A DNA stretch of 7,368 nucleotides from a virus (taxonomy: Duplodnaviria > Heunggongvirae > Uroviricota > Caudoviricetes), in IMG/VR virus record IMGVR_UViG_2537561685_000009. One strand, written 5' to 3'. A program made the translations under genes and the position numbers. The notes under the pieces are model-generated. The model had not been told where the DNA came from. It saw only the letters and a program-made list of their open reading frames with translations, and searched no databases. Positions 94-6,986 of the stretch are shown in pieces. The stretch's first letter is position 1. Each line of letters opens with the position of its first letter.

Positions 94-672
94 ATGGCCA
101 TAAAAGGTCTTGAGCAGGCCGTTGAAAACCTCAGCCGTATCAGCAGAACGGCGGTGCCCGGTGCCGCCGCAATGGCCATTAACCGCGTTGCTTCATCCGC
201 GATATCGCAGTCGGTGGCACAGGTTGCCCGTGAGACAAAGGTACGCCGGAAACTGGTAAAGGAAAGGGCCAGGCTGAAAAGGGCCACGGTCAAAAATCCG
301 CAGGCCAGAATCAGGGTTAACCGGGGGGATTTGCCCGTAATCAAGCTGGGTAACGCGCGGGTTGTCCTTTCGCGCCGCAGGCGTCGTAAAAAGGGGCAGC
401 GTTCATCCCTGAAAGGTGGCGGCAGCGTGCTTGTGGTGGGAAACCGTCGTATTCCCGGCGCGTTTATTCAGCAACTGAAAAATGGCCGGTGGCATGTCAT
501 GCAGCGTGTGGCCGGGAAAAACCGTTACCCCATTGATGTGGTGAAAATCCCGATGGCGGTGCCGCTTACCACGGCGTTTAAACAGAATATTGAACGGATA
601 CGGCGTGAATGTCTTCCGAAAGAGCTGGGCTATGCGCTGCAGCATCAACTGAGAATGGTAATAAAGCGATGA
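94..672 (+). CDS. Z: Minor tail protein Z (tail completion protein)
   Basis: Intact 192-aa ORF (MAIKGLEQAVENLSRIS...HQLRMVIKR), near-identical in length and sequence to lambda gpZ as recalled. Purine-rich RBS (AGGGGGA) a few nt upstream of ATG 94. Stop TGA 670-672 overlaps the U start (ATGA). Confidence 0.9.
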   Translation: MAIKGLEQAVENLSRISRTAVPGAAAMAINRVASSAISQSVAQVARETKVRRKLVKERARLKRATVKNPQARIRVNRGDLPVIKLGNARVVLSRRRRRKKGQRSSLKGGGSVLVVGNRRIPGAFIQQLKNGRWHVMQRVAGKNRYPIDVVKIPMAVPLTTAFKQNIERIRRECLPKELGYALQHQLRMVIKR

Positions 673-1064
673 AACATACTGAACTCCGTGCAGCCGTACT
701 GGATGCACTGGAGAAGCATGACACCGGGGCGACGCTTTTTGATGGTCGCCCCGCTGTTTTTGATGAGGCGGATTTTCCGGCAATTGCCGTTTATCTCACC
801 GGCGCTGAATACACGGGCGAAGAGCTGGACAGTGATACCTGGCAGGCGGAGCTGCATATTGAAGTTTTCCTGCCTGCTCAGGTGCCGGATTCAGAGCTGG
901 ATTCGTGGATGGAGTCCCGGATTTATCCGGTGATGAGCGATGTCCCGGCACTGTCAGATTTGATCACCAGTATGGTGGCCAGCGGCTATGACTACCGGCG
1001 CGACGATGATGCGGGCCTGTGGAGTTCAGCCGATCTGACTTATGTCATTACCTATGAAATGTGA
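669..1064 (+). CDS. U: Tail tube terminator protein U
   Basis: 131-aa ORF starting at ATG 669 ([18 protein letters not shown]...LTYVITYEM), matching lambda gpU with a few substitutions. The track ORF 609..1064 is an upstream in-frame extension; the real start is the ATG overlapping the Z stop. Confidence 0.9.
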
Positions 1065-1071
1065 GGACGCT

Positions 1072-1799
1072 ATGCCTGTACCAAATCCTGTAATGCCGGT
1101 GAAAGGTGCCGGGACCACCCTGTGGGTTTATAAGGGAAGCGGTGACCCTTATGCGAATCCGCTTTCAGACGTTGACTGGTCGCGTCTGGCAAAAGTTAAA
1201 GACCTGACGCCCGGCGAACTGACCGCTGAGTCCTATGACGACAGCTATCTCGATGATGAAGATGCAGACTGGACTGCGACCGGGCAGGGGCAGAAATCTG
1301 CCGGAGATACCAGCTTCACGCTGGCGTGGATGCCCGGAGAGCAGGGGCAGCAGGCGCTGCTGGCGTGGTTTAATGAAGGCGATACCCGTGCCTATAAAAT
1401 CCGCTTCCCGAACGGCACGGTCGATGTGTTCCGGGCTGGGTCAGCAGTATCGGTAAGGCGGTGACGGCGAAGGAAGTGATCACCCGACGGTGAAGTCACC
1501 AAGTGGGCGTCCGTCATGGCAGAAGATCGCAGACGGTACGCGGCAACCGGATGACGTGACGCCTGCCAGCCTCGGTGGTGAAAGGGCAGAGCACCACGCT
1601 GACCGTGGCATTCCAGCCGGAGGGTGCAACTGACAAGAGCTTCCGTGCGGTGTCAGCGGATAAAACAAAAGCCACCGTGTCGGTCAGTGGTATGACCATC
1701 ACCGTGAATGGCGTTGCTGCAGGTAAGGTCAACATTCCGGTCGTATCCGGTAATGGTGAGTTTGCTGCGGTTGCAGAAATCACCGTCACCGCCAGTTAA
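1072..1799 (+). pseudogene. V: Major tail tube protein V, reading frame disrupted between about 1430 and 1575
   Basis: ATG 1072 ([31 protein letters not shown]...) is preceded by a GAGGA RBS. The N-terminal frame matches lambda gpV up to ...GTVDVFR, then ends at TGA 1462-1464. The continuation [17 protein letters not shown] is encoded in another frame (1434-1484), followed by short frame-hopping pieces (TVK, GRPS, MAEDR). The C-terminal Ig-like portion ([16 protein letters not shown]...AEITVTAS) is intact in the frame of ORF 1575..1799. The span 1072..1799 is 728 nt, not a multiple of 3. Confidence 0.8.
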
Positions 1800-1814: not shown

Positions 1815-2237
1815 ATGTTCCTGAAAACCGAATCATTTGAACATAACGGTGTGACCGTCACGCTTTCTGAACTGTCAGCCCTGCAGCGTATTGAGCATCT
1901 CGCCCTGATGAAACGGCAGGCAGAACAGGCGGAGTCAGACAGCAACCGGAAGTTTACTGTGGAAGACGCCATCAGAACCGGCGCGTTTCTGGTGGCGATG
2001 TCCCTGTGGCATAACCATCCGCAGAAGACGCAGATGCCGTCCATGAATGAAGCCGTTAAACAGATTGAGCAGGAAGTGCTTACCACCTGGCCCACGGAGG
2101 CAATTTCTCATGCTGAAAACGTGGTGTACCGGCTGTCTGGTATGTATGAGTTTGTGGTGAATAATGCCCCTGAACAGGCAGATGACGCCGGGCCAGCAGA
2201 GCCTGTTTCTGCGGGAAAGTGTTCGACGGTGAGCTGA
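1815..2237 (+). CDS. G: Tail assembly chaperone G
   Basis: Intact 140-aa ORF (MFLKTESFEHNGVTVTLSEL...PVSAGKCSTVS), lambda gpG-like. GGAGAG RBS upstream of ATG 1815. Stop TGA 2235-2237. Confidence 0.9.
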   Translation: MFLKTESFEHNGVTVTLSELSALQRIEHLALMKRQAEQAESDSNRKFTVEDAIRTGAFLVAMSLWHNHPQKTQMPSMNEAVKQIEQEVLTTWPTEAISHAENVVYRLSGMYEFVVNNAPEQADDAGPAEPVSAGKCSTVS

Positions 2238-2653
2238 GTTTTGCCCTGAAACTGGCGCGTGAGATGGGGCGACCCGACTGGCGTGCCATGCTTGCCGGGA
2301 TGTCATCCACGGAGTATGCCGACTGGCACCGCTTTTACAGTACCCATTATTTTCATGATGTTCTGCTGGATATGCACTTTTCCGGGCTGACGTACACCGT
2401 ACTCAGCCTGTTTTTCAGCGATCCGGATATGCATCCGCTGGATTTCAGTCTGCTGAACCGGCGCGAGGCTGACGAAGAGCCTGAAGATGATGTGCTGATG
2501 CAGAAAGCGGCAGGGCTTGCCGGAGGCGTCCGCTTTGGCCCGGACGGGAATGAAGTTATCCCCGCTTCCCCGGATGTGGCGGACATGACGGAGGATGACG
2601 TAATGCTGATGACAGTATCAGAAGGGATCGCAGGAGGAGTCCGGTATGGCTGA
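1815..2653 (+). CDS. G-T: Tail assembly chaperone G-T fusion produced by programmed -1 ribosomal frameshift
   Basis: Slippery heptamer G GGA AAG at 2213-2219 lies near the 3' end of G. The -1 frame continues open from 2219 to TGA 2651-2653 and encodes the gpT-like sequence (FDGELSFALKLAREMGRPDWRAMLAGMSS...GIAGGVRYG). There is no independent strong start for T. This is the well-known lambda G/GT recoding arrangement. Confidence 0.8.
2213..2219 (+). promoter_or_regulatory. Programmed -1 ribosomal frameshift slippery site (GGGAAAG) for G-T synthesis
   Basis: Exact XXXYYYZ heptamer GGGAAAG positioned so that zero-frame codons are GGA AAG, 6 codons before the G stop, with the T frame open in -1. 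Confidence 0.8.
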
Positions 2654-5221
2654 ACCGGTAGGCGATCTGGTCGTTGATTTGAGTCTGGATGCGGCCAGAT
2701 TTGACGAGCAGATGGCCAGAGTCAGGCGTCATTTTTCCGATACGGAAAGTGATGCGAAAAAAACAGCGGCAGTCGTTGAACAGTCAATGAACCGGCAGGC
2801 GCTGGCTGCACAGAAAGCGGGAGTTTCCGTCGGGCAGTATAAAGCCGCCATGCGTATGCTGCCTGCACAGTTCACCGACGTGGCCACGCAGCTTGCAGGC
2901 GGGCAAAGTCCGTGGCTGATCCTGCTGCAACAGGGGGGTCAGGTTAAGGACTCCTTCGGCGGGATGATCCCCATGTTCAGGGGGCTTGCCGGTGCGATCA
3001 CCCTGCCGATGGTGGGGGCCACCTCGCTGGCGGTGGCGACCGGTGCGCTGGCGTATGCCTGGTATCAGGGCAACTCAACCCTGTCCGATTTCAACAAAAC
3101 GCTGGTCCTTTCCGGCAATCAGGCGGGACTGACGGCAGATCGTATGCTGGTCCTGTCCAGAGCCGGGCAGGCGGCAGGGCTGACGTTTAACCAGACCAGC
3201 GAGTCACTCAGCGCACTGGTTAAGGCGGGGGTAAGCGGTGAGGCTCAGATTGCGTCCATCAGCCAGAGTGTGGCGCGTTTCTCCTCTGCATCCGGCGTGG
3301 AGGTGGACAAGGTCGCTGAAGCCTTCGGGAAGCTGACCACGACCCGACGTCGGGCTGACGCGATGGCACGCAGTTCCATAACGTGACGGCGGAGCAGATT
3401 GCGTATGTTGCTCAGTTGCAGCGTTCCGGCGATGAAGCCGGGGCATTGCAGGCGGCGAACGAGGCCGCAACGAAAGGGTTTGATGACCAGACCCGCCGCC
3501 TGAAAGAGAACATGGGCACGCTGGAAACCTGGGCAGACAGGACAGCACGGGCATTCAAATCCATGTGGGATTCGGTGCTGGATATTGGTCGCCCGGACAC
3601 TGCCCAGGGAATGCTGGAGAAAGCAGAAAAGGCTTTTGATGAGGCGGACAAAAAATGGCAGTGGTATCAGAGCCGGAGCCACCGGCGCGGTAAAACCTCA
3701 GCATTTCGTGCCAATCTCCGGGGAGCATGGGAGGACAGAGCGAATGCGCAACTTGGACTTTCAGCCGCCACGTTGCAGGCCGATCTTGAAAAGGCCAGAG
3801 AGATGGCAGCAAAGGACTGGGCCGAGTCTGAGGCATCACGGCTGAAATATACCGAAGAGGCGCAGAAGGCTTACGAACGGCTGCAGACGCCGCTGGAGAA
3901 ATATACCGCCCGTCAGGAAGAACTGAACAAGGCACTGAAAGACGGGAGAATCCTGCAGGCAGATTACAACACGCTGATGGCGGCGGCGAAAAAGGATTAT
4001 GAAGCGACGCTGAAAAAGCCGAAACAGTCCGGCGTGAAAGTGTCTGCGGGCGATCGTCAGGAAGACAGTGCTCATGCTGCCCTGCTGACGCTTCAGGCAG
4101 AACTCCGGACGCTGGAGAAGCATGCCGGAGCGAATGAGAAAATCAGCCAGCAGCGCCGGGATTTGTGGAAGGCTGAAAATCAGTTCGCGGTACTGGAGGA
4201 GGCGGCACAACGTCGCCAGCTATCCGCACAGGAGAAATCCCTGCTGGCGCATAAAGATGAGACGCTGGAGTACAAACGCCAGCTGGCTGCACTTGGCGAC
4301 AAGGTTACGTATCAGGAGCGCCTGAACGCGCTGGCGCAGCAGGCGGATAAATTCGCACAGCAGCAACGGGCAAAACGGGCCGCCATTGATGCGAAAAGCC
4401 GGGGGCTGACTGACCGGCAGGCAGAACGGGAAGCCACGGAACAGCGCCTGAAGGAACAGTATGGCGATAATCCGCTGGCGCTGAATAACGTCATGTCAGA
4501 GCAGAAAAAGACCTGGGCGGCTGAAGACCAGCTTCGCGGGAACTGGATGGCAGGCCTGAAGTCCGGCTGGAGTGAGTGGGAAGAGAGCGCCACGGACAGT
4601 ATGTCGCAGGTTAAAAGTGCAGCCGCGCAGACCTTTGATGGTATTGCGCAGAATATGGCGGCGATGCTGACCGGCAGTGAGCAGAACTGGCGCAGCTTCA
4701 CCCGTTCCGTGCTGTCCATGATGACAGAAATTCTGCTTAAGCAGGCAATGGTGGGGATTGTCGGGAGTATCGGCAGCGCCATTGGCGGTGCTGTTGGTGG
4801 TGGAGCATCCGCGTCAGGCGGTACAGCCATTCAGGCCGCTGCGGCGAAATTCCATTTTGCAACCGGAGGATTTACGGGAACCGGCGGCAAATATGAGCCA
4901 GCGGGGATTGTTCACCGTGGTGAATTTGTCTTCACGAAGGAGGCAACCAGCCGGATTGGCGTCGGCAACCTGTACCGCCTGATGCGCGGCTATGCCACCG
5001 GCGGTTATGTCGGTACACCGGGCAGCATGGCAGACAGCCGGTCGCAGGCGTCCGGGACGTTTGAGCAGAATAACCATGTGGTGATTAACAACGACGGCAC
5101 GAACGGGCAGATAGGTCCGGCTGCTCTGAAGGCGGTGTATGACATGGCCCGCAAGGGTGCCCGTGATGAAATTCAGACACAGATGCGTGATGGTGGCCTG
5201 TTCTCCGGAGGTGGACGATGA
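2646..5221 (+). pseudogene. H: Tail tape measure protein H, frameshifted near 3341-3385 into a 246-aa N-terminal ORF and a 612-aa C-terminal ORF
   Basis: ATG 2646 overlaps the end of G-T (ATGGCTGA). The N-terminal ORF (MAEPVGDLVVDLSLDAARFDEQMARV...EAFGKLTT) runs to TGA 3384-3386. The continuation (SAEQIAYVAQLQRSGDEAGALQAANEAATKGF...) is in a different frame from 3383 and runs to TGA 5219-5221, with a long Ala/Gln/Glu-rich helical middle and a Gly-rich hydrophobic segment typical of tape measure proteins. DPTSG and MAR fragments are visible in alternating frames inside 3341-3373. Confidence 0.8.
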
Positions 5222-5547
5222 AGACCTTCCGCTGGAAAGTGAAACCCGGTATGGATGTGGCTTCGGTCCCTTCTGTAAGAAAGGTGCGCTTTGGTGATGG
5301 CTATTCCCAGCGAGCGCCTGCCGGGCTGAATGCCAACCTGAAAACGTACAGCGTGACGCTTTCTGTCCCCCGTGAGGAGGCCACGGTACTGGAGTCGTTT
5401 CTGGAAGAGCACGGGGGCTGGAAATCCTTTCTGTGGACGCCGCCTTATGAGTGGCGGCAGATAAAGGTGACCTGCGCAAAATGGTCGTCGCGGGTCAGTA
5501 TGCTGCGTGTTGAGTTCAGCGCAGAGTTTGAACAGGTGGTGAACTGA
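5218..5547 (+). CDS. M: Minor tail protein M (tail tip assembly)
   Basis: Intact 109-aa ORF (MKTFRWKVKPGMDVASVPSVRKVRFGDGYSQRAPAGLNANLKTYSVTLSVP...), lambda gpM-like. ATG 5218 overlaps the H stop (ATGA). Stop TGA 5545-5547 overlaps the L start (TGATG). Confidence 0.9.
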   Translation: MKTFRWKVKPGMDVASVPSVRKVRFGDGYSQRAPAGLNANLKTYSVTLSVPREEATVLESFLEEHGGWKSFLWTPPYEWRQIKVTCAKWSSRVSMLRVEFSAEFEQVVN

Positions 5548-6244
5548 TGCAGGATATCCGGCAGGAAACACTGAATGAATGCACCCGTGCGGAGCAGTCG
5601 GCCAGCGTGGTGCTCTGGGAAATCGACCTGACAGAGGTCGGTGGAGAACGTTATTTTTTCTGTAATGAGCAGAACGAAAAAGGTGAGCCGGTCACCTGGC
5701 AGGGGCGACAGTATCAGCCGTATCCCATTCAGGGGAGCGGTTTTGAACTGAATGGCAAAGGCACCAGTACGCGCCCCACGCTGACGGTTTCTAACCTGTA
5801 CGGCATGATCACCGGGATGGCGGAAGATCTGCAGAGTCTGGTCGGCGGAACGGTGGTCCGGCGTAAGGTTTACGCCCGCTTTCTGGATGCGGTGAACTTC
5901 GTCAACGGAAACAGCGAAGCCGATCCGGAGCAGGAGGTGATCAGCCGCTGGCGCATCGAGCAGTGCAGCGAACTGAGCGCGGTCAGTGCCTCTTTTGTAC
6001 TGTCCACGCCGACTGAAACGGATGGCGCTGTTTTTCCGGGACGTATCATGCTGGCCAACACCTGCACCTGGACCTATCGCGGTGATGAGTGCGGTTATAG
6101 CGGTCCGGCGTCGCGGATGAATATGACCAGCCGACGTCCGATATCACGAAGGATAAATGCAGCAAATGCCTGAGCGGCTGTAAGTTTCGCAATAACGTCG
6201 GCAACTTTGGCGGCTTCCTTTCCATTAACAAACTTTCGCAGTAA
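5547..6244 (+). pseudogene. L: Tail tip protein L, frameshifted near 6100 so the written ORF ends early at 6173
   Basis: ORF 5547..6173 (MQDIRQETLNECTRAEQSASVVLWEIDL...TWTYRGDECGYSGPA) matches lambda gpL and then diverges into SRMNMTSRRPISRRINAANA*. The expected C-terminus (DEYDQPTSDITKDKCSKCLSGCKFRNNVGNFGGFLSINKLSQ*) is encoded in the +1 frame from about 6103 to TAA 6242-6244. The span 5547..6244 is 698 nt, one short of a multiple of 3. Confidence 0.8.
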
Positions 6245-6248
6245 TCCC

Positions 6249-6986
6249 ATGACAGAGACAGAATCAGCGATTCTGGCGCACGCCCGGCGATGTGCGCCAG
6301 CGGAGTCGTGCGGCTTCGTGGTGAGAACGCCGGAGGAGGAAAGATATTTTCCCTGCGTGAATATCTCCGGTGAGCCGGAGGCGTATTTCCGGATGTCGCC
6401 GGAGGACTGGCTGCAGGCAGAATGCAGGGTGAGATTGTGGCGCTGGTCCACAGCCACCCCGGTGGTCTGCCCTGGCTGAGTGAGGCTGACCGGCGGCTGC
6501 AGGTGCAGAGTGATTTGCCGTGGTGGCTGGTCTGCCGGGGGCGATTCATAATTCCGCTGTGTGCCGCATCTCACCGGGCGGCGCTTTGAGCACGGGGTGA
6601 CGGACTGTTACACGCTGTTCCGGGAGCTTACATCTGGCGGGATTGAGATGCCGGATTTTCATCGCGGGGATGACTGGTGGCGTCACGGTCAGAATCTCTA
6701 TCTGGATAATCTGGAGGCCACAGGGTTTTACCGTGTCGCACTGACAGAGGCACAACCTGGCGATGTGCTGCTGTGCTGCTTTGGTTCATCGGTGCCGAAT
6801 CATGCCGCCATTTACTGCGGCGACGGTGAGCTGCTGCACCATATTCCTGAACAACTGAGTAAACGAGAGAGGTATACCGACAAATGGCAGCGACGCACAC
6901 ACTCCCTCTGGCGTCACCGGGAATGGCACGCATCTGCCTTTACGGGGATTTGCAACGATTTGGCCGCCGCATCGACCTTCGTGTGA
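6249..6986 (+). pseudogene. K: Tail tip assembly protein K (MPN/JAMM plus NlpC/P60-like), frameshifted at about 6421 and again at about 6540-6556
   Basis: ATG 6249 (MTETESAILAHARRCAPAESCGFVV...FRMSPEDWLQAE) is followed by a frame break. The conserved MQGEIVALVHSHPGGLPWLSEADRRLQVQSDLPWWLVCRG, which contains the JAMM-type HxH-x7-S-x2-D motif, is encoded in another frame from 6422. Frame 0 resumes at 6561 (PHLTGRRFEHGVTDCYTLF...NHAAIYCGDGELLHHIPEQLSKRERYTDKWQRRTHSLWRH...STFV*) to TGA 6984-6986. An alternative shorter start at ATG 6393 (MSPEDW) corresponds to the shorter lambda annotation as I recall it. Confidence 0.7.

Follow-up and report, generated by a model that had tools for sequence, protein, structure and literature searches.

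The frameshift that cuts short the tail tip gene L in a lambda-type prophage of Escherichia coli p0305293.5 is, with high probability, a consensus error of the draft assembly and not a mutation. The real L gene most likely encodes a normal gpL of 232 residues with all four cysteine ligands of the [4Fe-4S] cluster, since the missing bases, including the third base of the Ala188 codon, lie on naturally polymorphic and mostly synonymous sites.

The L frameshift and the iron-sulfur ligands

The stretch of DNA analysed here (the window, 7368 bases) is the entire contig AQCA01000042.1 of GCA_000359055.2, the Illumina draft genome of E. coli p0305293.5. The contig lies entirely within a prophage and its ends fall inside the genes FII and I. 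It contains a lambda-type tail module, Z-U-V-G-T-H-M-L-K plus the start of I, and all the features described below are on the plus strand. L starts at 5547 and is flanked by M (5218–5547) on one side and by K (from 6251) and the I fragment (up to the contig end) on the other, a position that fits the tail tip gene order H-M-L-K-I-J.

As written, the L ORF (5547–6173) encodes 208 aa, namely gpL residues 1–188 followed by 20 out-of-frame residues after Ala188 (SRMNMTSRRPISRRINAANA), and is closed by the stop codon TGA at 6171–6173. The native gpL residues 189–232 are encoded out of frame with respect to this ORF, at 6110–6244; translation of the frame from 6110 gives VADEYDQPTSDITKDKCSKCLSGCKFRNNVGNFGGFLSINKLSQ and ends at the TAA at 6242–6244. 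The alignment to lambda L proposed as a check in the original prediction was run, together with an alignment to E. coli TW10722, and it located a single missing base at the junction 6109–6110, where the window reads GGC-GTC and both references read GGCTGTC. The absent base is the third one of the Ala188 codon; lambda and TW10722 have T there, other alleles G or A. Thus the original prediction was right about a frame shift in L, about an ORF ending at 6173 after 20 unrelated residues and about a native C-terminus running in another frame up to the TAA. The G-run that it had named as the site and cause was wrong: the position is an isolated T/G/A synonymous polymorphism between GGC and GTC, with no homopolymer slippage.

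Lambda gpL is known to bind an Fe-S cluster (Tam et al., 2013, as cited in PMC10721106), and the cryo-EM structure of the tail tip gives Cys173, Cys182, Cys205 and Cys212 as the [4Fe-4S] ligands (PMC10721106, citing Tam et al., 2013), which agrees with the earlier statement that the cluster is bound through cysteines including those of the C-terminal motif. The codons of Cys173 (6063–6065) and Cys182 (6090–6092) are upstream of the shift (6063–6092), both in frame, while those of Cys205 (6158–6160), Cys208 (6167–6169) and Cys212 (6179–6181) come after it. The motif CSKCLSGC had been placed at about 6145–6170, but its codons occupy 6158–6181. The predicted loss of the cysteine cluster is therefore correct for Cys205, Cys208 and Cys212, but of the four Fe-S ligands it takes away just Cys205 and Cys212, Cys173 and Cys182 being kept as the only ligands of the written ORF. 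All four ligand codons are present in the DNA, in one frame once the base is restored.

The gene belongs to the lambda gpL family and is unremarkable within it. The Pfam profile PF05100 (Phage_tail_L) matched the written ORF with 270.8 bits (cut-off 25) over residues 29–188, corresponding to profile positions 1–161 of 206, and matched the repaired L with 337.2 bits over profile positions 1–206. At the DNA level, the window L shares 97.7% identity with lambda L (J02459, 13429–14127) over the gene, with the same M-L-K-I order and the same PF05100 family, and it matches the lambda gpL structures deposited as PDB 8IYK, 8IYL, 8K35, 8XCG and 9E7M. After repair the two proteins are alike also in having Cys173, Cys182, Cys205 and Cys212 in a chain of 232 aa, and they differ by few substitutions, e.g., V88I, M95L and Y124E; the written L differs in being out of frame after Ala188 and in missing Cys205, Cys208 and Cys212.

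Another deletion concerns the L stop, where the window has one A fewer in TAAA (6242–6243); the stop is kept and there is no coding effect. The same gap is present in 13 of 81 panel loci (the panel is described below), and natural variation of the spacer, rather than an artefact, may account for it.

Single-base deletions across the tail module

The window was compared by global alignment with TW10722, the closest complete genome (98.6% identity). The alignment contained 76 substitutions, 25 single-base deletions and no insertion, with 7368 bases in the window vs 7393 in TW10722. Intact ETEC prophage modules such as this one, whose L is WP_001152639.1 (NZ_CP035841.1; module 98.6% identical over 7.4 kb), have the 25 bases of which the window is short. 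Thirteen deletions lie within 137 bases of V, four within 31 bases of H, one in L, one in the TAAA of the L stop and six in K, and none of the 25 is in a long homopolymer. The V cluster (1433–1569) splits the gene into the ORFs 1072–1464 and 1575–1799, and the surrounding region of the window, 943–2177, has 13 deletions and zero substitutions. The cluster in the tape-measure gene H (3340–3370) affects only third codon positions and splits H into 2646–3386 and 3383–5221. The deletions in K (6420–6638) follow positions 6420, 6541, 6551, 6625, 6630 and 6638 and leave K in fragments.

With the 25 bases put back, all four genes are full-length: V encodes 246 aa counted from its real start, H 859 aa, L 232 aa and K 247 aa. 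The repaired L is an exact match to a deposited protein of 232 aa (EKI54019.1/UPI00028CF0DC) carried on 22 contigs, and the repaired V is an exact match to a deposited protein carried on 112 contigs. The broken forms have been deposited as well: ENH51257.1 is the written 208-aa L ORF, found on a single contig, and the two halves of H are separate proteins of the same record, ENH51254.1 and ENH51255.1. As these three proteins correspond to the broken ORFs, the error is already in the record itself. We therefore rejected the possibility that it was introduced when the window was extracted, the contig and the deposited protein sequences already carrying the deletions. The window's own contig (L091) is listed in three samples, with its truncated L protein on only one contig under one accession; this mismatch probably reflects several versions of one assembly.

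The third codon position accounts for 21 of the 25 (binomial P about 3e-7), and 21 of the 25 are at polymorphic sites, against a module background of 11.3% (P about 1e-16), a site being called polymorphic when at least 10% of a panel of 80 lambda-like loci from IMG/VR had an alternative allele. At the L site the panel counts are T 57, G 20 and A 4, corresponding to the synonymous alanine codons GCT, GCG and GCA. Some deletions fall in short runs of the same base, where the placement is ambiguous, and could be moved to polymorphic neighbours (6440 to 6441; 6663 to 6665 or 6666); with such shifts, the deletions beyond the 21 can also be set on a site of this kind.

To reconstruct the V patch, we took positions 1400–1620 of the TW10722 reference and removed the 13 columns at which it differs from the allele of loci L080, L079 and L016; the result was window 1400–1607, exact over 208 bases. 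The same procedure with the alleles of L032 and L003 reproduced two patches of K. These reconstructions indicate that the window patches are what two natural alleles share, the mismatched columns having been dropped. To our knowledge, no mutational process drops the mismatch columns between two alleles, an outcome that is possible for a consensus taken over collapsed copies. For the H cluster, no single allele of the panel differs at all four deleted sites; three of the four match L081 and L077, and the fourth is C/T polymorphic.

These results bear on the possibility that L has suffered a real single-base deletion and is a pseudogene in a decaying cryptic prophage, which we consider very improbable. 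The deletion is present in the deposited sequence, prophage tail genes do decay (e.g., the chromosomal copy of ETEC strain E1779, whose annotation gives L an internal stop and marks H and K as frameshifted), and the L deletion stands alone, the nearest other one being about 130 bases from the junction. Taken alone, this isolated deletion could be a real mutation that fell on a polymorphic site, with a chance of about 11% for a random site. Under real decay, however, bases are gained as well as lost, homopolymers are hit preferentially and codon position plays no role, while the window has 25 deletions vs no insertions, concentrated at third positions and polymorphic sites, and its V patch is rebuilt exactly by dropping the mismatch columns of two natural alleles. 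Moreover, the repaired L is, apart from the missing base, an intact deposited protein, no clean homologue has the deletion, and a real mutation in L alone would need to have hit a polymorphic synonymous site by chance amid 20-odd artefactual deletions of the same kind.

A programmed event of translation was also considered, in which ribosomes shifting by +1 or −2 at the junction would yield full-length L. In lambda, a programmed −1 frameshift between G and T produces the tail assembly chaperone GT. The slippery heptamer of this event, GGGAAAG, is intact in the window at 2213–2219, at the end of G, with the G stop at 2235–2237 and a T-frame ORF from 2219; judging from the sequence, the G-T frameshift should work in the window, as a real signal, unlike the artefactual shifts. 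A true programmed frameshift is found near L, but the sequence at GGC-GTC lacks a slippery motif, L is encoded in a single frame at each of the homologous loci that span the site (100/100), and more than 20 further recoding events would be needed in V, H and K of the same contig. We regard recoding in L as vanishingly unlikely, and the homologues exclude it in practice.

The junction in other genomes and contigs

The deletion was found in 0 of the 2860 complete E. coli genomes holding the 101-base stretch around the junction, the best match being 101/102. Among the 100 fetched loci covering the L site, the missing base was absent from none (0/100), all having T, G or A, and among the fetched loci the junction string occurred only in the window's own contig. 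It was likewise absent from the metagenome contigs and the species-representative genomes that were searched. Exact-protein look-ups for sibling isolates or for a second copy of the module returned intact relatives, with no contig assignable to siblings of p0305293.

One other contig with the junction was found in IMG/VR, L105 (IMGVR_UViG_2531839454_000013). The L-K-I stretch of this public, isolate-derived contig (positions 9239–11026, 1.8 kb) contains about 60 single-base deletions along with a few insertions; the deletions show a bias for the third codon position and are on columns that vary among homologues. L105 is another instance of this artefact and not independent support for a variant, and its signature points to a systematic artefact of a pipeline.

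The occurrence of homologues with the same short C-terminus had been put forward as an argument for a real variant. The search gave no such homologue with a clean sequence, but only L105, which is itself ridden with deletions. A real loss of the L C-terminus, which the original prediction implied, is unsupported: the L deletion is one of 25, without any insertion, on columns that vary between alleles.

Collapsed prophage copies as the proposed origin

The characteristics of the deletions are those of an assembly artefact: the errors are on allele-variable sites, they are deletions only, clustered and outside homopolymers, and they do not recur in clean assemblies. To account for them we propose that p0305293.5 would carry two copies of the tail module, about 99.7% identical to each other. 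A short-read assembler would have merged both copies into one contig, ending in FII and I, where the copies would diverge further. At columns where two bases were present in about equal numbers, the consensus would have emitted no base, possibly through a layout that gave each allele a half-gap column of its own, next to the other's, or through the discarding of ambiguous calls. Multi-colony ETEC isolates of the sequencing centre were sequenced as HiSeq2000 paired ends at >200x coverage and assembled with Celera Assembler (PMC4462620). The P0305293 isolates are ETEC from Bangladesh, 2011, and we infer the assembly method of p0305293.5 from the text of PMC4462620 on the Bangladesh ETEC isolate collection.

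The presence of two copies in p0305293.5 is plausible from what is seen in other genomes. E. coli genomes bearing the module have a median of three matching places each. In ETEC E1779, 96 sites separate two copies of the module, and five of these are deletion sites of the window; one copy (L093) is on NZ_LR883007.1, a phage-sized circular record of 46,243 bp named ‘plasmid 2’, and the other (L094) on the chromosome, NZ_LR883006.1. Many module genes of E1779 are flagged as frameshifted, the internal stop in L and the frameshifts in H and K being annotated in the chromosomal copy, and these flags may be either long-read errors or real decay.

The 76 substitutions between the window and TW10722 are patchy, being located at window positions 600–950, 2170–3150, 3700–5000 and 5800–6760; 39 of them correspond to the E1779 ‘plasmid 2’ allele and 11 to the E1779 chromosomal allele. 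This makes the window backbone either a mosaic made up of known alleles or, possibly, the chimeric consensus that two collapsed copies would give.

Collapsed repeats in short-read drafts usually give rise to chimeric base calls or ambiguity codes. The window resembles such cases in being a short, all-prophage contig with errors only where paralogous alleles differ, a signature shared by L105; it differs in that every mixed column became a deletion, which indicates a specific behaviour of the consensus. In a variant of this explanation, the mixed sites would have received ambiguity letters (Y, R, K, etc.) that were stripped after assembly, before annotation and deposit. Stripping predicts the same pattern, with deletions only and each exactly at a mixed site, and would have to precede annotation, the deposited proteins already showing the loss. 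Stripped letters and a consensus gap call leave the same sequence, and we know of no documented step of ambiguity stripping for that pipeline. We consider the stripping of letters rather unlikely.

The apparent loss of the Fe-S domain in L is very probably no real feature, and the finding is above all a warning on data quality, in that every site differing between two prophage copies has very probably been turned into a one-base deletion in a public draft contig. As a consequence, spurious truncated or split V, H, L and K proteins are present in protein databases (ENH51257.1, ENH51255.1, ENH51254.1), and at least one other public contig is alike. Surveys of prophages in such assemblies that look for pseudogenes, recoding or lost domains will run into these artefacts, for which a quick test is whether the errors are exclusively deletions and, at the same time, lie at third codon positions and on polymorphic columns. 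Should the base be truly absent in p0305293.5, to which we give a very slim chance, gpL would be cut after Ala188 with two of its four Fe-S ligands kept, and the prophage would offer a natural experiment on the need for the Fe-S domain in tail tip assembly. The import for the biology of the phage is small, since its gpL is most likely an ordinary one that includes the iron-sulfur site.
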